IMG/VR virus record: IMGVR_UViG_2713897054_000020
Strand: one strand, 5' to 3'
Source: a virus
Taxonomy: Duplodnaviria; Heunggongvirae; Uroviricota; Caudoviricetes
Length of the DNA stretch: 9,715 nt
The position numbers and the translations under genes were made by a program. The notes below the pieces were generated by a model. That model saw nothing but the letters and a program-made list of their open reading frames with translations. It had not been told where the DNA came from and ran no database searches. The stretch's first letter is position 1, and each line of letters begins with the position of its first letter. Of this stretch, positions 1 through 9,715 are shown one piece after another.

Positions 1-282
1 TTATCGCCGTAACCGCTCCGGCTTCTTCCAGTGGTACGTAATTTTTTCTTTCTCCCGATACAGTTCAACGCGGCGATTGTAGGCCAGCATTTCCAGAACG
101 CGGATCCGTATGTCGCGCATATCCACGCCGTTAAGCTCAATACCGTCACGGCGCATCACCTCAGCAACCACACGCGCATAATTTTCGGCGGTCACGCTGT
201 CCGGCTGCGTGGCCTGTTCGTCAGCCTGCTGGCTGATTCCGGCAACGCGACGGATTAATCGCAGTAGTTCGGCTTCTGTCAT
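1..282 (-). CDS. hypothetical protein (93 aa), gene immediately beyond cos-1
   Basis: Complete minus-strand ORF: ATG at 282-280 preceded by a G-rich SD-like stretch, stop TAA at 3-1 at the window edge. Co-oriented with the rpp-like gene. No motif recognised. Confidence 0.45.
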   Translation of the reverse strand: MTEAELLRLIRRVAGISQQADEQATQPDSVTAENYARVVAEVMRRDGIELNGVDMRDIRIRVLEMLAYNRRVELYREKEKITYHWKKPERLRR

Positions 283-317: not shown

Positions 318-520
318 GGTCCTTCCTGGAATTATGGCCCGTTACGGGGCGGCGACCTCGCGGTTTTTATCTGTTTATGAAAATTTTCCGGCAAAAGTCA
401 GATCCGTTCTTCTTCTCTGTAACAGACTGTTTAAAAATGAAAATATTAAAAAAAGAAAGGATCTGACACGAGGCATTTTAGCCAGAAAATGTCATTATCA
501 GATCCTTTCTCATTTTTGTT
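318..520 (+). other. lambda-type cohesive-end site (cos-1): cosN core plus cosB-like R-site array
   Basis: 339-363 CCGTTACGGGGCGGCGACCTCGCGG matches the lambda cosN region as I recall it (12-nt cohesive end GGGCGGCGACCT = 347-358), followed by TTTATGAAAATTTTCCGG as in lambda. Downstream are three copies of an 8-mer, TCAGATCC at 398-405, inverted GGATCTGA at 459-466 and TCAGATCC at 498-505, with an A-rich tract between them (about 430-455), mirroring the lambda R3-I1-R2-R1 layout. Confidence 0.75.
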
Positions 521-537
521 CAATAATTGCGCGTCTG

Positions 538-1080
538 TTACTCGCCTTTCTTCTGTAGTAACTTCTCCGGTACGTCTCCGGTAGTTTCCATCAGGTAATC
601 AGCCAGTATCTGCGGGAGGTTGTCAGCAACTCCTGCGCAAGCATTACAGGCTTTAACCACTTCCTTTTTAAGTCCATCCAGCATAGCGGGGGTCATCTGT
701 GGGAAGCTCCTTTGCATAGTAAGCGGGAGGCTGTCCATGATTGATGAAATCTGACTCGCCAGTTTTGAAAGCGCGTACATGCAAAACTCTGTATCAATCA
801 CGTCACCGCGATCGCGCTCGTTTTTAAGTTCCTGCGCCTCTGCCTGTGCTGTCAGTAATCTGATCCTGACTCGTAAAAGTTCATCATCATCAATCTCACC
901 TTTGCCGTTTGTAAGCTGGCTAATTGCATTGTTAACCCTATTGTCTATCACGCTGGCAACATCATAAAACGCCTCACGGCCTTTACGCTCAACGGGAGTT
1001 ACTCCCCACTTGTCGAACGCTGTCGCACTTACACGGCAGCTTTTAGCCATGTTTTTTTTGTTCATCAGGTGCGATTTCAT
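538..1080 (-). CDS. small terminase (lambda Nu1) homologue; likely Rpp-type packaging-redirection protein of cos-type PICIs
   Basis: 180-aa ORF. The C-terminal two thirds align with lambda Nu1 (RLLTAQAEAQELKNERD...DTEFCMYALSKLASQISSIMDSLPLTMQRSFP versus Nu1 RLTRAQADAQELKNARD...ETAFCTFVLSRIAGEIASILDGLPLSVQRRFP). The N-terminal DNA-binding region is diverged (NKKNMAKSCRVSATAFDKW versus NKKQLADIFGASIRTIQNW). Flanked by cos sites. The start could be the ATG at 1080 or the in-frame ATG at codon 6 or 11. Confidence 0.85.
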   Translation of the reverse strand: MKSHLMNKKNMAKSCRVSATAFDKWGVTPVERKGREAFYDVASVIDNRVNNAISQLTNGKGEIDDDELLRVRIRLLTAQAEAQELKNERDRGDVIDTEFCMYALSKLASQISSIMDSLPLTMQRSFPQMTPAMLDGLKKEVVKACNACAGVADNLPQILADYLMETTGDVPEKLLQKKGE

Positions 1081-1187
1081 TAATACACCAACTTAATTAC
1101 TGCTTCAGGTTGGTGTATTGCTTGCATCTTTCCCTTTTTATTCATAAAGATAGAGCAAACAACAAAACCACCACCACCACCCTGAAA

Positions 1188-1254
1188 AAGCTCATAAATA
1201 GCGAAAAACCGCGAGGTCGCCGCCCCGTAACGGTCCATATGCCGGAAAGGACCC
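1188..1254 (-). other. second cos-like site (cos-2), inverted relative to cos-1, upstream of the rpp-like gene
   Basis: 1209-1233 CCGCGAGGTCGCCGCCCCGTAACGG is the exact reverse complement of the cos-1 cosN 25-mer. About 65 bp is shared with cos-1 at roughly 85 percent identity, including the flank TTTTTCGCTATTTATGA on the minus strand, which matches lambda. Read on the minus strand the order is cosN, a cosB-like region, then the terminase-homologue gene, i.e. the lambda arrangement. Confidence 0.65.
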
Positions 1255-1256
1255 GT

Positions 1257-1279
1257 AAAAAAAGCCGGATTTCTCCGGC
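1257..1279 (-). terminator. rho-independent terminator after the capsid operon
   Basis: Stem GCCGGA (1264-1269) pairs with TCCGGC (1274-1279) around a 4-nt loop. An A7 run at 1257-1263 gives a U7 tail on the minus-strand transcript. Lies directly after the stop of the 137-aa gene (1285). Confidence 0.6.
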
Positions 1280-1284
1280 CTGTC

Positions 1285-1698
1285 TCAGATGGTTTTCAGT
1301 ATGCGATCGATGTCGCCGTCATCGCCCGGGTTTCTGCCATCGTATGCCATGCCAGCTGATACGGCTTGCGGGCTGTGCATGTCCATAAAGTTTTCAAAGG
1401 CTGCGGTAAGCTCCGGCGCAACCCTCGGACGTTCCTGCTCTATGGTCATGCTAAGGATGCTTTTAGCCGTACCAACATCGATACAAGGCACGTTTGCCAT
1501 TGCACGTAACAGCGGCTGATAGTCGCCAGATTCATCAAGCGCCATAATCGCATCAGCGCGCGGCTTGTCCTGCTCTTCCAGTTTGTTAAGTTGATATATG
1601 GCCTCGTAGGTTGATAACCCTCTGTCAGCCATTGCCCGCGCTTCGGCTTTAAATTTACTCGCCAGCGGTAGCGTCATGATGCTTTCATTCGTTGCCAT
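1285..1698 (-). CDS. hypothetical protein (137 aa), last gene of the capsid operon; possibly an assembly or scaffold-type factor
   Basis: Minus-strand ORF, ATG at 1698-1696, 12-nt gap after the gpD-like gene with a G-rich SD. Acidic, Ala-rich, predicted helical. No motif recognised; the scaffold suggestion rests on position only. Confidence 0.55.
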   Translation of the reverse strand: MATNESIMTLPLASKFKAEARAMADRGLSTYEAIYQLNKLEEQDKPRADAIMALDESGDYQPLLRAMANVPCIDVGTAKSILSMTIEQERPRVAPELTAAFENFMDMHSPQAVSAGMAYDGRNPGDDGDIDRILKTI

Positions 1699-1710: not shown

Positions 1711-2046
1711 TTATCGGGCCAGCGGCTGAACGGATACGCCAGAACCCGCAAAGGCGGCGCATTTTTTCGCATCGGTGTCGACGCTCTCAGGCCAGTTAAC
1801 GGCGGCAATATTGAATATCCCCGTCTTGTAACACTGTGCTGATTTCTGCTTTGACGTGTCCACAGGATACGAAGTCAGATAAACAGCCTTGCCAGATTCC
1901 TGACCATCCCACGGCTTAAACTCGCCATTGTCCGCCAGCATCAGCGGGGTAAATTCCTGAATAACGCCAGCATCAGCGGCAAAATGTACCAGCGTCGTGG
2001 CGACCTGCTGACTGCCTGCGAATAACTCAATGTATGGAGTGTCCAT
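1711..2046 (-). CDS. head decoration protein, lambda gpD homologue
   Basis: 111 aa, about the size of gpD (110 aa). Blocks TPLMLADNGEFKPWDG and WPESVDTDAKKCAAFAGSGVSV align with gpD TPLMLDTSSRKLVAWDG and [30 protein letters not shown] upstream of ATG 2046-2044. Confidence 0.85.
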   Translation of the reverse strand: MDTPYIELFAGSQQVATTLVHFAADAGVIQEFTPLMLADNGEFKPWDGQESGKAVYLTSYPVDTSKQKSAQCYKTGIFNIAAVNWPESVDTDAKKCAAFAGSGVSVQPLAR

Positions 2047-2057
2047 AGAATCCCCCG

Positions 2058-3113
2058 TTAACCAATTTTGACGGTAACAAATTTGCGAATATCTGCCGGT
2101 ACCGGCTGCGGTGCGCTGTGTGTCTGCACGTACTCAATCGCCGGATCGCCGTCCTCAATCCAGTTTTTCGGGTAGTACATGTTTTGCGTTGCGCCCGTTC
2201 TGACCGCTTCCTGATCCATAATCGCACCATAGGCCACCAGGCCTTTATTGTTGGTGTTACCCAGGACCAGTAAATCAGGCTCAAGGAAATATTTTTCGGT
2301 GCCGTCGCTGTCAGCGTATTTGCCGGAATAGACGATAAGGGCAATATCGCCCAGATAGCCTTTAAAGCTCACCACTTCGCCCAGGTTTTTACAGGCCAGT
2401 TCTGCGGCGGATTCTGAACCACGGGAAAGATCGTACAGCTCACGGAATTTTTTAAAGCTGCGTAACGTGCGCCATACCTCAGCGCCCATAATCATGACGT
2501 TTGCGGGGCAACCAGCCTGATCAGCATAAAGCTCGATGTCATAGATTGGGTCGTGCATCTCTTTATCCTGCTCGGACCATTTTTTACCCTTGGCCTGCTC
2601 TATGATGCAGTTTTCCGGTATTTTCCAGTCTATTTCATAGCGTTCTATGCCTTCGCCCTCAATAATGTTTTTTCCGGTCGTTATCGCATTCACCGCTAGC
2701 CATTCCACGCGCGCTTTAATGGCGTTTACCTGGCGGCGCATGTTGCCAGTAATCAGGCGCATACGTCGGTAGGTAGGGTCGTTAAGCTGTGCCGGATCTT
2801 CTCCAGCCATGCGCATGATGGTTTTTGTTGGATCGATTTCGTGCTTTGGCTTCATGTAGCCAGGTTTAATCGTGCTGGTTTCGTATCCTTTATCGCGCTG
2901 TACCTGGCTGCCAACCATAGGCGAACAAAACGCCGACATGGTGACTTCTTCAATGTCCAGGGTATCCAGCATGATGTTTTGGGTGCTGAATGTCGCCACG
3001 TTCGGGAAAAACAGCGTGGTAAACAGCGGACTGAATTTAAATTCCGCAATATCCCCGCGATTCAGGTACGCAAAAAGCTGGTTAGTGTTAAGTGCCGTTG
3101 CTTTGCCTGCCAT
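2058..3113 (-). CDS. major capsid protein, lambda gpE family
   Basis: 351 aa versus gpE 341 aa. Conserved blocks run across the whole length: EFKFSPLF, PGYMKPKHEIDP, EDPAQLNDPTYRRMR, KGYLGDIALIVYSGKY, LVLGNTNNKGLVAYGAIMD and YPKNWIEDGDPA, against gpE KFKFDPLF, PGYVKPKHEVNP, EDPQNLADPAYRRRR, KGMYGDVAIVVYSGQY, MVLGNTQARGLRTYGCIQD and YPKNWVTTGDPA. The start overlaps the upstream stop (TAATG). Confidence 0.9.
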   Translation of the reverse strand: MAGKATALNTNQLFAYLNRGDIAEFKFSPLFTTLFFPNVATFSTQNIMLDTLDIEEVTMSAFCSPMVGSQVQRDKGYETSTIKPGYMKPKHEIDPTKTIMRMAGEDPAQLNDPTYRRMRLITGNMRRQVNAIKARVEWLAVNAITTGKNIIEGEGIERYEIDWKIPENCIIEQAKGKKWSEQDKEMHDPIYDIELYADQAGCPANVMIMGAEVWRTLRSFKKFRELYDLSRGSESAAELACKNLGEVVSFKGYLGDIALIVYSGKYADSDGTEKYFLEPDLLVLGNTNNKGLVAYGAIMDQEAVRTGATQNMYYPKNWIEDGDPAIEYVQTHSAPQPVPADIRKFVTVKIG

Positions 3114-3556: not shown

Positions 3557-3967
3557 TCAGAACGGAATATCATCACCGTAGGGGTCATCGTCTCCCGCTG
3601 GTGGCTGATTACCCTGTGCGCCTGTGGTTTTGCGTCTGTTCCCGCCAGGACGTGCCGCACGGGCACTGATTACGCTGTCTGCAATAACCTGATAACCCTG
3701 CCGCGTTTCCCCGTTCTGTCCGGTCCACTGGCTTATCTGCATCACGCCAGATATGCTGGCAACGTCGCCTTTTTGATGTTTAGCCAGGAAGTCGGCCTGC
3801 TTACCAAATGCCATCACCGATAGCCATAACGTAGCCGTTCCGTCATCTGCCTGGCTGCACGGAAGGGGGACCGCCATACGAGCCAGCGTCATTGGTGTGC
3901 CCTTGCTGGTCTGTTTTACCTGCGGGTCGTCCACCAGCCGCCCGTAAGCGGCTATCTGTGCCGTCAT
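3557..3967 (-). CDS. ssb: single-stranded DNA-binding protein
   Basis: 136 aa. OB-fold core blocks GRLVDDPQ and WLSVMAFGKQADFLAKHQKGDVASISG parallel E. coli SSB GNLGQDPE and [28 protein letters not shown]. Gly/Pro-rich linker and an acidic C-terminal tail ending DDIPF, as in SSB. The ATG overlaps the upstream stop (ATGA). Confidence 0.85.
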   Translation of the reverse strand: MTAQIAAYGRLVDDPQVKQTSKGTPMTLARMAVPLPCSQADDGTATLWLSVMAFGKQADFLAKHQKGDVASISGVMQISQWTGQNGETRQGYQVIADSVISARAARPGGNRRKTTGAQGNQPPAGDDDPYGDDIPF

Positions 3968-4233
3968 ACTGCCCCCTCTCCGGTTTTAACGTTGATGGTT
4001 GTTACCTGTTCCGCTTCGGCAATCTCCCGTTCTGTCAGCGTGGCAAAGTTTGCCGCTGCTGTGGTCATGAATGCGCTTATCAGGTCGGGATGTTCCTTCG
4101 CGTATCCTTCCCCCGCGTGGCGGTCTATTACCCTGATTGCTACCTTTAAGGCGTGCTCTGTCATGTCTAACGCTTTATATTTTGGCTCTGTTCTGTCTCT
4201 GCGCATTTTGGTTATCTCCTCACTCATGCTCAC
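3964..4233 (-). CDS. hypothetical protein (89 aa) between the origin and ssb
   Basis: ORF translationally coupled to ssb through an ATGA overlap. The start is either GTG at 4233 (SD GAGG 6 nt upstream) or ATG at 4227. No motif recognised. Confidence 0.5.
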   Translation of the reverse strand: MSMSEEITKMRRDRTEPKYKALDMTEHALKVAIRVIDRHAGEGYAKEHPDLISAFMTTAAANFATLTEREIAEAEQVTTINVKTGEGAV

Positions 4234-4420
4234 TTTTGCGCCTCACTTTTTAAAGAGTCTCGCTTCGTCTCACTTGATATTTTTGATGTTTTTATGTGCA
4301 TGTTTCATAAGGATTTTTTTACTCCTCACTTTTTGGGGTATATATACGTTGAAAAGTGAGGAGTTCAGGGGGTTTTTCGTTCAATTACTCATTGTCCTCA
4401 CTTTTGCGCCTCACTTTTTA
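4229..4420. repeat. putative replication origin: iteron array with an AT-rich inverted-repeat core
   Basis: Two perfect 24-bp direct repeats CTCACTTTTGCGCCTCACTTTTTA at 4229-4252 and 4397-4420. The sub-motif CTCACTT(TT) occurs at least six times on the plus strand and once inverted. A 12-bp inverted repeat CTCCTCACTTTT (4322-4333) / AAAAGTGAGGAG (4351-4362) flanks the AT-rich spacer TGGGGTATATATACGTTG. Sits immediately 3' of the replication helicase gene. Confidence 0.6.
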
Positions 4421-5827
4421 CAGAGGGCCTACATCATCACCGTCGATATAAATAACCCCGTCTTTTTCCAGCTTGCGTAGCCAGCGGCTGAAGTTTTTCA
4501 TTTCGTACCCCAGCTTTTTCATATCGTCACGTAACAGCGGGATCGTGCACTTGTCGCCGTGCTGTGTGCGTGACCGGATACATCCCCATAGCGCAGCATG
4601 ATTCTCCGTCTTGTTGCCAGCCTCTTCGATGCGCTCCAGTTCAACGGGAGGACGCGGCTTATCCACCACCACCAGCGACGTGATTAACTCCCCGTCAGCG
4701 TCGGTAAAAAGCTCCACCACCCGCAAATCATAGGCAGCCTCTTTGAGTTCCTCCGCGTCCTTCATTTTGGTGCATGAGATAACCAGCGCTTCGCTTCCTG
4801 CGTCCTCCCTGCGTATCCGGTATTCAGCGTCCAGTGATGCACGAAATGCACTGGAACCACGCGCCCCCTTTGTTTCATCCTTGCCGGAATGGTGAACCAC
4901 CAGCACCGTAGCCCCTGTGCGCCGTTTAAGCTCGTCACAACCACGGATAAATGCCCCCATGTCGCGGGAGTCATTTTCATCATTGCCGCCAAAGCAACGC
5001 GCCAGCGTGTCCAGAATAATCATGCGAACAGGTTTACCCGTTTCCCTCTCCACCTGACTGGCAGCAATAACCAGTTCATCAACATCAAGCGGGACAGCCG
5101 GAAAGATGGGACGGTTTACCAGATACAGATTTTTCACCTGCTCACCGTGCACAACCTCCCAGGCTTTTACACGACGCGGAACGCCGATACCGCCTTCACC
5201 AACCACATAGAGAACAGCGCCATGCGCCACCCTGCGGCCTCCCCACTGGCGGCCCGTGGAAACGTGACACGCCCACGATCCGGCAAGGAATGATTTATAG
5301 GAACCGCTCGCCCCGTATATGCTGCAAAGCGACGATGCCGGAATAATCCCCTTTACCACGTAATCAAGCTGTGTGTCGTATCCGGTAGATCCAACGCTCA
5401 TCGGTAGCGTGGTTTTTCGCTGGGGAATTTTTTTCATGACCAGGCTTTCCCCGCGTTCCCATGCCTCCCTAAGCCGTGGAAGCTGGTCGCTCCATTCCTC
5501 CAGCAATTCGAAATTTTCAGAAAGTAGCCGCGCCTCCTGGACTCCGGCGATCGCCAGTTTCGTGGCGATGGTTAACAGCTGCGGCTCTTCAATATTTCCG
5601 GCGCGTATCACCGTCGCCCTGTATCGCCCATCATCAACAATCTGGAGGTTATCCAGTTCGCTTAACTGATAACGCCCCAGATAAACGGGAGGGACTGGAT
5701 CGCCTGCTTTTTTGGCCTGTGCAATGATGTAATGCTCTGCGAATGAATGAGCATCAATACCCGCAAAAATAATCGCATCGGTGTATTTATCTTTCGGTAA
5801 TAGTTTTACGTTCGGTGCCAGTTTCAT
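4418..5827 (-). CDS. replication initiator/helicase, RepA/DnaB-like RecA-fold ATPase (AAA_25-type)
   Basis: 469 aa. P-loop-like GASGSYKS, Walker B-like VRMIILDTLARCFGG, and a helicase H4-type motif ATVLVVHHSGKD. An N-terminal domain of about 170 aa and a C-terminal domain of about 70 aa are unassigned. SD AGGGGT; the ATG overlaps the upstream stop (ATGA). Confidence 0.85.
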   Translation of the reverse strand: MKLAPNVKLLPKDKYTDAIIFAGIDAHSFAEHYIIAQAKKAGDPVPPVYLGRYQLSELDNLQIVDDGRYRATVIRAGNIEEPQLLTIATKLAIAGVQEARLLSENFELLEEWSDQLPRLREAWERGESLVMKKIPQRKTTLPMSVGSTGYDTQLDYVVKGIIPASSLCSIYGASGSYKSFLAGSWACHVSTGRQWGGRRVAHGAVLYVVGEGGIGVPRRVKAWEVVHGEQVKNLYLVNRPIFPAVPLDVDELVIAASQVERETGKPVRMIILDTLARCFGGNDENDSRDMGAFIRGCDELKRRTGATVLVVHHSGKDETKGARGSSAFRASLDAEYRIRREDAGSEALVISCTKMKDAEELKEAAYDLRVVELFTDADGELITSLVVVDKPRPPVELERIEEAGNKTENHAALWGCIRSRTQHGDKCTIPLLRDDMKKLGYEMKNFSRWLRKLEKDGVIYIDGDDVGPL

Positions 5828-7967: not shown

Positions 7968-7985
7968 CGTGATTTACCTCATTAA

Positions 7986-8013
7986 TCCGGTGTATTCCGG
8001 TGTATTCCGGTGA
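7986..8013. repeat. tandem direct repeat (TCCGGTGTAT x2 plus a partial third copy) immediately upstream of alpA
   Basis: TCCGGTGTAT at 7986-7995 and 7996-8005, then TCCGGTGA at 8006-8013. Lies between the alpA SD and its presumed promoter. A palindrome ACCGTTT-TT-AAACGGT is at 8055-8070. Confidence 0.5.
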
Positions 8014-8108
8014 GAAATACGGTAAATCATCGGATGCAGGGAAAAACAGTACTCACCGTTTTTAAACGGTATACACAGTTTTTTATATTGATGATTTGAA
8101 AGGGATTT

Positions 8109-8473: not shown

Positions 8474-9715
8474 CTAAACGGCTCGGATACCCCTTTTACC
8501 ACTGGCGAGGGTTACGCCCGTCGCCGCAGCCTCGACAAATTCGCCCCACCAGCGCATAAGCACGATGCGTTTTTCTATGTAGTTGCTCCGGTTGTATGCC
8601 CGTCTGACTTCGTTGGTGTCGACGTGGGCAAGTGCGGCCTCTATTACGTCTGGCTCAAAGCCTTCTTCGTTCGCTGCTGTGCTGAATATGGCGCGTAATC
8701 CATGAGACACCAGCACGCCAGCGAATCCCATGCGTCGTAATGCTGCGTTAGCGGTCTGGCTGTTCATCGGCTGCTGTGGGTCTTTCAGACTCGGGAAAAC
8801 ATAATCGCGGTGGTGGCTGATTGGTTTCATAGCCTCCAGCACTGCCATAGCCTGGTCACAAAGCGGGATAACGTGGTCGCGGCGCATCTTCATGCGTCCG
8901 GCGGGTATGGTCCAGCGTTGCGCTTCCATGTCGATTTCTTCCCAGCGTGCCGACGATGCTTCAACGGGACGGGTTACGGTCAGTAACTGCCATTCAATCA
9001 GTAATCTGGTCTGCCGTTCTGTTGCCGATACTGATAAAGCCTGCATAAGCTCCGGCAGCTGTTCGGGGCGGATTGTTGGCATATGTTTTTTTACAGGGGA
9101 GGGGAACGCCTTACGCACATTCATAGCCGGATTGGCATCAATCATCCCACTATTGGCGGCGTAATCCATTACCTCATTTATACGCTGTAAAACTCGCTTG
9201 AGCGTTTCCAGGTTGCCACGTTCCTTGATGGGGGTAAGCACCTCAACGAACCTGCGAGCGGTCAGGGTGTCTATTGGCGTGTTGCCGATGAACGGGAATA
9301 CATATTTTTCCAGCGATCGCCAGATGTCTTTAATCGTATTGGGGGCCAGATTCTGGCTGATTTTCACCTGGTACCATGCTGTTGCCACATTTTCGAACGT
9401 GTTCCCTTGTCTTCGGGCCTCTGTCTCTCTTTTTTGCCTCTCGTGGTCCTGCGGGTCAGTTCCGGCACGAATTAACGCCCTGTACTCGCTACGGCGTTTT
9501 CTGGCATCAGCCAGGGAAACATCATCAAGCGATCCAAAACTCAGCAATATTCTTTTTTTGTCCGATGGTCGGTAGTAGGAAAATCTCCAGAGTTTTGATC
9601 CGGACGGTTTGATCAGGAGAAAAAGCCCTCCGCCGTCCTGTAGGGTGTATTCCTTTTCTGCTGGTCTGGCTGCTTTGATCTGTACTGTGGTTAATGGGGG
9701 TGTTTTTCTCGCCAT
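8474..9715 (-). CDS. int: tyrosine site-specific integrase, P4/CP4-57 family
   Basis: 413 aa. The N-terminal arm-binding region LTTVQIKAARPAEKEYTLQDGGGLFLLIKPSGSKLWRFSYY matches the P4-type integrase pattern (DGGGLYL..KP.GSK.WRF.Y). The C-terminal catalytic region carries HGLRA, HVIPLC and a late RRAYNRSNY segment that probably holds the catalytic Tyr. The ATG is the last three bases of the window, so the promoter and attachment site lie outside it. Confidence 0.9.
   Translation of the reverse strand: MARKTPPLTTVQIKAARPAEKEYTLQDGGGLFLLIKPSGSKLWRFSYYRPSDKKRILLSFGSLDDVSLADARKRRSEYRALIRAGTDPQDHERQKRETEARRQGNTFENVATAWYQVKISQNLAPNTIKDIWRSLEKYVFPFIGNTPIDTLTARRFVEVLTPIKERGNLETLKRVLQRINEVMDYAANSGMIDANPAMNVRKAFPSPVKKHMPTIRPEQLPELMQALSVSATERQTRLLIEWQLLTVTRPVEASSARWEEIDMEAQRWTIPAGRMKMRRDHVIPLCDQAMAVLEAMKPISHHRDYVFPSLKDPQQPMNSQTANAALRRMGFAGVLVSHGLRAIFSTAANEEGFEPDVIEAALAHVDTNEVRRAYNRSNYIEKRIVLMRWWGEFVEAAATGVTLASGKRGIRAV

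Follow-up and report, generated by a model that had tools for sequence, protein, structure and literature searches.

What is the role of the inverted repeat and of the run of ACC trinucleotides that lie directly upstream of the minus-strand gene 538-1080 in the viral record IMGVR_UViG_2713897054_000020? A sequence-only reading of this DNA (9,715 nucleotides, the whole of which is called the window here) had placed both elements around the ribosome-binding region of an rpp-like gene, within the flank of a site that it named cos-2, and had offered several possibilities: that the repeat folds as RNA over the translation-initiation region, that as DNA it is bound by a protein dimer, and that the run changes in length by slippage and so tunes the spacing of binding sites. 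Gram-negative phage-inducible chromosomal islands (PICIs) hijack lambda-like phages, spreading virulence and defence genes. How the Rpp-type islands redirect packaging is already known, and the DNA boxes in the cosB of PICIs have so far merely been proposed. Judging from comparison of sequences, the repeat and the run are most likely docking sites for the small terminase subunit (TerS) of the island itself, beside the cosN at which a helper phage starts packaging, and their layout is most likely an ordinary lambda-like one rather than a regulatory hairpin or a variable microsatellite.

The island and its two cos sites

The window is an E. coli PICI that shares 99.9% identity with a stretch of E. 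coli O91 RM7190 located between tRNA-Pro and yejO. All of its long open reading frames are on the minus strand, and they include the following genes:

1-282, minus strand: 93-aa protein
538-1080, minus strand: Nu1-family protein (TerS)
1285-1698, minus strand: 137-aa protein
1711-2046, minus strand: lambda D-like decoration protein
2058-3113, minus strand: lambda E-like major capsid protein
3557-3967, minus strand: SSB
4418-5827, minus strand: RepA-like helicase
8474-9715, minus strand: integrase

The Nu1-family gene is enclosed by two lambda-type cos sites that are inverted relative to each other, with one cosN at 347-358 on the plus strand and the other at 1214-1225 on the minus strand. Two cos sites were also reported for the island EcCICFT073, in which transfer requires cos1, and the cosB of cos1, which is recognised by an RppA-TerS complex, was found experimentally to determine Rpp-dependent packaging (Fillol-Salom 2018 and 2019). 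TerS-encoding E. coli PICIs were mentioned in 2018 without characterisation.

When the published cos sequences and the CFT073 genome were compared with the window, the two islands proved to be collinear, and therefore the site that had been labelled cos-2 is of the published cos1 type, matching EcCICFT073 cos1 rather than cos2 in both position and sequence. The capsid, decoration and 137-aa genes, the terminator hairpin, cosQ, cosN and bp 1-34 counted from the cohesive end are near-identical in the window and in CFT073; the divergence begins at approximately bp 35 and runs through the whole of the specificity gene. Past this point CFT073 carries its own cosB and rppA, with the ATG at bp 102, whereas the window carries a different cosB and an N15-like terS of 180 aa, with the ATG at bp 146. 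Downstream the two islands are alike again, an inverted second cos being followed by the 93-aa gene. Relative to EcCICFT073, cosB and the specificity gene have been exchanged as one unit on a common backbone. When 5426 complete E. coli genomes were compared with a query spanning cosB and cosN (window positions 1095-1235), approximately 586 of them matched it over at least 80%.

The specificity gene of the island

The gene next to the repeat starts with an ATG at 1080-1078 on the minus strand, this annotated start being backed by the conservation of M1, H4 and L5 in homologues with Leu at residue 6, and it is annotated in RefSeq as 'terminase small subunit'. Its product of 180 aa is a TerS of the Nu1/N15 gp1 family that matches Pfam Phage_Nu1 over residues 62-148 (4.9e-23). 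By tblastn it is 46% identical to N15 gp1 (residues 5-163) and 34% identical to lambda Nu1 over residues 6-166, so that among phage proteins N15 gp1 is the nearest to it. The putative recognition helix (...RVSATAFDKWG) aligns as SATAFDKWG against SVQAFDKWG in N15. Long 'viral' contigs that carry an island-type terS were considered as possible phages and rejected, being islands that lie beside other elements; the search thus yielded no phage that carries exactly this type of TerS, and N15 remains the closest.

The rpp-like label given to this gene had to be abandoned. The alignment of the island protein with lambda Nu1 and N15 gp1 is collinear through their C-termini, where the binding of TerL has been placed in lambda; Rpp proteins, by comparison, have 135-153 aa and are without the C-terminal TerL-binding region. 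The predicted structure of the island TerS is of low confidence (pLDDT 62), too low for a fold search, and therefore a sequence profile was run against PDB chains in its place. This profile, built from 16 homologues, retrieved the lambda TerS chain 6hn7_B (E 0.004) of the RppC-TerS entry 6hn7, and neither phmmer nor the profile search of PDB chains returned any Rpp chain at E up to 10. The gene at 538-1080 is a full-length terS, not an rpp. Another open reading frame, at 1080-1238 (52 aa), in which (GGT)5 would give Gly5, was also considered as a candidate and rejected; it spans cosN and has its start in the non-conserved spacer between cosQ and cosN.

Anatomy of cosB

The cosB occupies bp 13-145 (window 1081-1213), between cosN and the terS ATG, and its functional strand is the minus strand. 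In the numbering used here, bp 1 of the left end is window position 1225, so that bp n corresponds to 1226 - n. The elements of the site are listed below, starting from the gene upstream:

1262-1281, minus strand: intrinsic-terminator-like hairpin (AGGCCGGAGAAATCCGGCTT and then a T run) that ends the 137-aa gene, the T run merging into cosQ; also in CFT073
1242-1259, minus strand: cosQ-like element TTTACGGGTCCTTTCCGG, which matches the cosQ of lambda and of EcCICFT073 cos1 (PMC6739421 Fig S1A) and is collinear with CFT073
1214-1225, minus strand: cosN cohesive-end sequence GGGCGGCGACCT, the same as the lambda left end
1157-1186 (bp 40-69), minus strand: R3-position G/T block TTCAGG-(GGT)5-TTTTGTTGTTT, as far from cosN as R3 is in N15 and lambda
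1121-1156, minus strand: A/T-rich spacer between R3 and R2 with an A5 tract and the conserved block ATGAATAAAAAGGGAAAGAT, at the position of the lambda IHF site I1
1104-1120 (bp 106-122), plus strand: R2-type box TTCAGGTTGGTGTATTG, opposite in orientation to R3 and R1, holding the distal arm 1109-1119
1081-1097 (bp 129-145), minus strand: R1-type box ATTAAGTTGGTGTATTA, direct, holding the proximal arm and overlapping the Shine-Dalgarno region

In BLAST searches the cosN matches phage 21 and other lambdoid cos sites.

The inverted repeat is present as it had been described, with arms of 9 bp, TACACCAAC (1084-1092) and GTTGGTGTA (1109-1117), a spacer of 16 nt and a gap of 3 nt to the ATG. It is longer than had been noted, extending with the same spacer to 11 of 11 bp between AATACACCAAC (1082-1092) and GTTGGTGTATT (1109-1119) and leaving 1 nt before the ATG. 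The 11-bp repeat is non-random; among 2000 dinucleotide-preserving shuffles of the 133-bp cosB, one produced a perfect inverted repeat of 11 bp or more. A second inverted repeat, missed earlier, was found between 1104-1115 (TTCAGGTTGGTG) and 1175-1186 (CACCACCCTGAA) with 11 of 12 positions matching, and it connects the distal arm (1109-1119) with the start of the ACC run. These segments, at the R2 and R3 positions and in opposite orientation, are the only two sites in the window with the exact sequence TTCAGGKTGGTG, and the observed number of matches of this type was reached by none of 200 shuffles.

The (ACC)5 run is likewise present at 1167-1181, and it is the complement of the (GGT)5 in a block that reads TTCAGG-(GGT)5-TTTTGTTGTT on the functional strand, where it falls at bp 45-59. 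R3 has been assigned to bp 48-59 in N15 by block mutations and to bp 50-65 in lambda (PMC4669245, PMC9026076), and an R3-PICI was placed at bp 48-65 in a 2022 proposal by Murialdo and Feiss. By position, therefore, the run corresponds to R3, and the arms of the repeat, each oriented as expected, correspond to R2 and R1.

The three boxes resemble each other to different degrees. R2 and R1 agree at 11 of 11 positions in the arms and at 13 of 17 across the full box, their centres being 23 bp apart as against approximately 41 bp in lambda, and R3 agrees with R2, in inverted orientation, at 11 of 12 positions across TTCAGGKTGGTG. Since the tract is repetitive, R3 can be read in more than one register, and the likeness of this block to the R2/R1 box varies accordingly, from 11/12 over TTCAGGGTGGTG to approximately 10/15 over the invariant core. 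Compared with N15, the R2 box (AGGTTGGTGTATT) is identical to the R3 region of the phage (AGGTTGTTGTTTA) at 10 of 13 positions, and island bp 48-59 are identical to N15 R3 at 7 of 12 when aligned in register. A search for R-like boxes with at most three mismatches found none inside terS (538-1080), and hence no rR2-like copy; R2 and R1 are located upstream of the gene, which gives this cosB a complex, Monarch-like architecture and not the simple one of N15. Palindromic R2/R1 pairs are also a property of lambda and of the second cos of the window, and the palindrome is thus normal for such sites. The 11-bp inverted repeat would simply be R2 facing R1, and the earlier suggestion of a dimer-binding site in the DNA agrees with its arms, which appear to be copies of the N15-family TerS R box at the R2 and R1 positions. 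The segment 1081-1213 is probably the cosB of the island's own cos and a candidate binding platform for the TerS encoded next to it.

Conservation of the boxes in related loci

A closely related terS was found in 123 loci from E. coli genomes, IMG/VR and metagenomes; the scan of genome contigs gave six of them, and the diversity came from the viral and metagenome scans. Among 59 distinct upstream sequences of the E. coli type, the G/T core TGGTGGTGGTTTTGTTGTT and the R2 box are near-invariant and the flanking positions vary; within the R2 box, ACCAACCTGAA is invariant in E. coli-type loci and the remainder nearly so. The proximal arm occurs as GTTGGTGTATT (33 loci), GTGGGGATATT (50 loci) and GTTGTGGTATC (28 loci), and the inverted repeat is perfect in 33 of the 123 loci (27%), with 7-9 of 11 positions matching in nearly all others. 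As R1 is degenerate in 73% of the loci, it cannot be essential. Some irregular versions of the R3 block were also observed: L025 (IMG/VR contig 2740892112_000004) and one other locus have a deletion of 3 bp, or one GGT unit, and the IMG/VR contigs L023 and L024 have G-homopolymer-like versions of the tract that may be sequencing errors.

The G/T core and the R2 box recur upstream of TerS homologues with identities as low as 38-55%, and boxes related to the N15-type R box were found in 15 distant loci. In Kosakonia and Superficieibacter (55% protein identity), the R3 position holds GCTGGTGGTGGTGTTGTTGTT and the R2 position CAATACACCCAC, whereas R1 is absent, with an ordinary AGAGGT Shine-Dalgarno sequence in its place. 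For every TerS homologue examined that has the AFDKWG helix (N15, Pseudomonas-type and marine), the R3 position is occupied by a GGTTG(G)TTGTTGTTT block. An inverted copy of the GGTTGGTGTTT type accompanies it, either upstream of terS or inside the gene at +147 to +164, which is the published position of rR2. An inverted GGTTGGTGT-type box upstream of terS was identified in Kosakonia, Superficieibacter, L139, L142 and L154. In the last of these, a soil contig with a TerS 38% identical to that of the island, an R3-like block precedes two to three inverted copies of AATACACCAAC, and one of the inverted boxes is identical to the island R2 box at 15 of 15 positions. The rR2 copies inside N15-like terS genes have the same orientation as the island R2 box.

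An inverted GGTTG(G/T)TGTTT box at +147 to +164 within terS was observed in L004, L006, L007, L140, L148, L149, L156, L161 and L165. The presence of this internal box in N15-like, Pseudomonas-type and marine terS genes widens the published rR2 of N15 to far more distant phages. A one-to-one covariation between the recognition helix (Q or T) and the R3 unit (GTT or GGT, respectively) was considered and rejected, being contradicted by L154, which combines a VQ helix with an island-type R2 box.

Alternative explanations for the repeat and the run

If the repeat acted in the mRNA, an 11-bp stem covering the Shine-Dalgarno sequence and ending 1 nt before the AUG would throttle the translation of terS. 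Such a fold over the translation-initiation region is indeed predicted for the leader of this island, with a minimum free energy of -19.7 kcal/mol compared with -10.8 +/- 2.6 kcal/mol for shuffled sequences (z -3.4; none of 200 shuffles as good), and leaders with the perfect repeat gave -17.8 to -19.7 kcal/mol. However, the stem is kept in this clade and not elsewhere. After 25 distinct orthologous leaders were folded, most other leaders of the E. coli type had z-scores of -2.5 to +2 with the stem interrupted or absent, and those of Kosakonia and Superficieibacter had no such stem. The pair counts gave no sign of covariation: 76% of the cells were paired and one was compensatory, the observed score was equalled or bettered by 285 of 500 shuffles, and six of the 11 stem pairs depart through mismatches only; on the folding and the pair counts a conserved RNA structure was rejected. 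A scan of 250-1750 against Rfam gave sub-threshold chance matches only, the terminator lies just upstream of cosQ and no promoter was found in cosB, and complementarity is automatic for two inverted copies of one DNA box. Throttling of terS by a hairpin is therefore unlikely as the explanation of the repeat. The hairpin may reduce terS translation in the clade of this island, where it could hold alongside a role of the DNA, and it is more simply understood as a by-product of two inverted DNA boxes. Being perfect and directly upstream of the gene, the palindrome might also be taken for an operator at which a dimeric repressor or activator of the island or the helper controls a terS promoter, and some related islands have a gene for an HTH regulator immediately upstream of cos. 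Yet the promoter scan found no sigma-70-like promoter on the minus strand in 1081-1260, so that the operator would stand without a promoter on the terS strand, and the centres of the arms are 27 bp or approximately 2.6 helical turns apart, which is awkward for a simple dimer. Moreover, one arm alone is conserved, and it recurs with distant TerS genes and not with any regulator gene, making an operator a very improbable reading of the palindrome.

For the ACC run, the proposal of a contingency microsatellite, in which slippage between isolates would tune the spacing of binding sites, could draw on the five perfect units of the run, on the number of perfect units among relatives (three, four or five), on two loci that are one unit shorter and on the different lengths of the G/T block in distant families (approximately 13 nt in N15 and approximately 26 nt in the island). 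The number of units varies, yet the length of the segment does not: from TATTTATGA to TTTTGTT it measures 24 nt in 120 of the 123 loci, and the differences in unit number are due to point substitutions within the 5' part that leave the length unchanged, the core being invariant. Among approximately 30 E. coli genomes that were sampled evenly and align over cosB, none had a span difference of 3 nt, and the distance between cosN and R3 in lambda tolerates a change of just 1-2 bp. A slippage-prone tract of variable length is largely refuted by these comparisons, and hardly any weight can be given to it.

Comparison with known packaging sites

It thus seems likely that R3, R2 and R1 form the TerS-recognition part of a lambda/Monarch-like cosB with boxes of the N15 family, located in a TerS-encoding PICI. 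In the cosB of lambda, R3 (bp 50-65) is followed by I1, the site for IHF, and then by an inverted R2 and a direct R1, the ATG being at bp 191. In N15 a single R3 (GAGGTTGTTGTT, bp 48-59) is critical, and a remote inverted rR2 lies inside gene 1, while the N15-like prophages of the 'Monarch' group have N15-type R boxes in a tripartite lambda-like cosB, as summarised in PMC4669245.

As in the complex cosB (R3-I1-R2-R1) of lambda, 21 and Monarch, the boxes of the island are located between cosN and the start of terS, approximately 45-65 bp separate R3 from the cohesive end, R3 and R1 point one way and R2 the other, and R2 and R1 form an inverted repeat. With Monarch, as summarised there, the island further shares the N15-type R boxes and the lack of rR2 in terS. 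However, those elements are phages and the island is a satellite (PICI). Its cosB is more compact than that of lambda, with the ATG at bp 146 instead of bp 191, and R1 abuts the start codon; its R3 takes the form of an expanded (GGT)n/(GTT)n tract; and its recognition helix reads SATAFDKW instead of the SVQAFDKW of N15 and Monarch. The lambda-type complex cosB also contains the IHF site I1, whereas in the island no match to WATCAANNNNTTR with at most two mismatches was found in bp 70-105 of four E. coli-type sequences, by a crude consensus scan that recovers lambda I1. The simple cosB of N15 has in common with the island a G/T-rich R3 at the same coordinate and an inverted accessory copy of similar sequence, but in the island the inverted copy is upstream of the gene, a third, direct copy is added, and none is inside terS.

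The cos1/RppA system of EcCICFT073 has the same backbone, the same position of cos relative to the specificity gene, an inverted phage-like second cos downstream and a trinucleotide ACC/GGT run at the R3 coordinate. It differs in the specificity protein, an Rpp of 135-153 aa that must pair with the phage TerS in place of a full-length TerS with a Nu1-like C-terminus, and its cosB is shorter (ATG at bp 102 compared with bp 146), that of the island being tripartite. The strand of the run is also opposite, the top strand having ACCACCACC at bp 55-63 in CFT073 and (GGT)5 at bp 45-59 in the island. When CFT073 (L100 1478-1582) is placed against window 1080-1225, ACCACCACC is the reverse complement of (GGT)n in the R3 range. 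The TerS of SaPIs, which are pac-type PICIs of Gram-positive bacteria, represents the same concept of a satellite TerS that redirects the large terminase of the helper to satellite DNA; however, it belongs to an unrelated TerS family and serves headful (pac) packaging, in contrast to the cos packaging and lambda-type cohesive ends of the island.

Proposed mechanism and its meaning

The assignment of the boxes draws on their positions and orientations, their likeness to the experimentally defined R3 of N15, their patterns of conservation and the joint replacement of cosB and the specificity gene in comparison with EcCICFT073; that TerS binds them, that the large terminase is recruited and that the DNA may be bent is inferred from the biology of lambda and N15. 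By this analogy, dimers of the N15-like winged-helix TerS of the island would bind at R3 and R2 and use R1 as an accessory site. Through its lambda/N15-like C-terminus, TerS would recruit the large terminase of the helper to the lambda-identical cosN, and this recruitment would redirect packaging to the island DNA.

The result refines established cos biology and involves no new mechanism. It provides base-level, testable coordinates of R3, R2 and R1 for the family of TerS-encoding E. coli PICIs, and the island boxes are now tied to the experimentally defined R3 of N15. A more speculative and rather improbable extension is that one ancestral R3, flipped between the two types of island, is read by the Rpp-TerS heterodimer in one and by the island TerS homodimer in the other, and that the perfect R2/R1 palindrome of this clade might also limit the dosage of TerS as an mRNA hairpin. 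If the flipped R3 were true, two packaging strategies of PICIs would be linked by descent, and cross-recognition or competition between co-resident islands would be predicted.

The second cos and other repeats in the window

The other cos of the window contains the following elements:

347-510, plus strand: second cos, inverted, at the published cos2 position, with cosN at 347-358; aligned with the lambda left end
399-417 (bp 53-71), plus strand: R3' CAGATCCGTTCTTCTTCTC, lambda-like
454-466, plus strand: R2' GAAAGGATCTGAC, lambda-like
498-510, plus strand: R1', lambda-like

A scan of the whole window identified R2' and R1' as a perfect 13-bp inverted repeat. The cosB of the second cos (347-537) is unmistakably lambda-like, and the site ends at the terS stop codon. 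The equivalent cos2 of CFT073 has 21-like CATGTCCGG boxes; no phage cosB was recognisable in EcCICFT073 according to Fillol-Salom 2018 and 2019. Some related islands (L050) are without a second cos and have just 12 nt between terS and the next gene.

Two further groups of repeats were observed at a distance from the cos sites. Just downstream of the helicase gene, at 4217-4425, there are three iteron-like copies of TTTTGCGCCTCACTTTTT with a spacing of approximately 84 bp, accompanied by inverted CCTCACTTTT / AAAAGTGAGG copies, and these repeats are probably the replication origin of the island. In an intergenic regulatory region near the integrase end, three tandem 10-bp repeats of the form TA(A/T)TCCGGTG are located at 7983-8012, bracketed by a 14-bp imperfect inverted repeat (7970-7983 / 8016-8029), and the tandem repeats within 7970-8029 may constitute an operator array.
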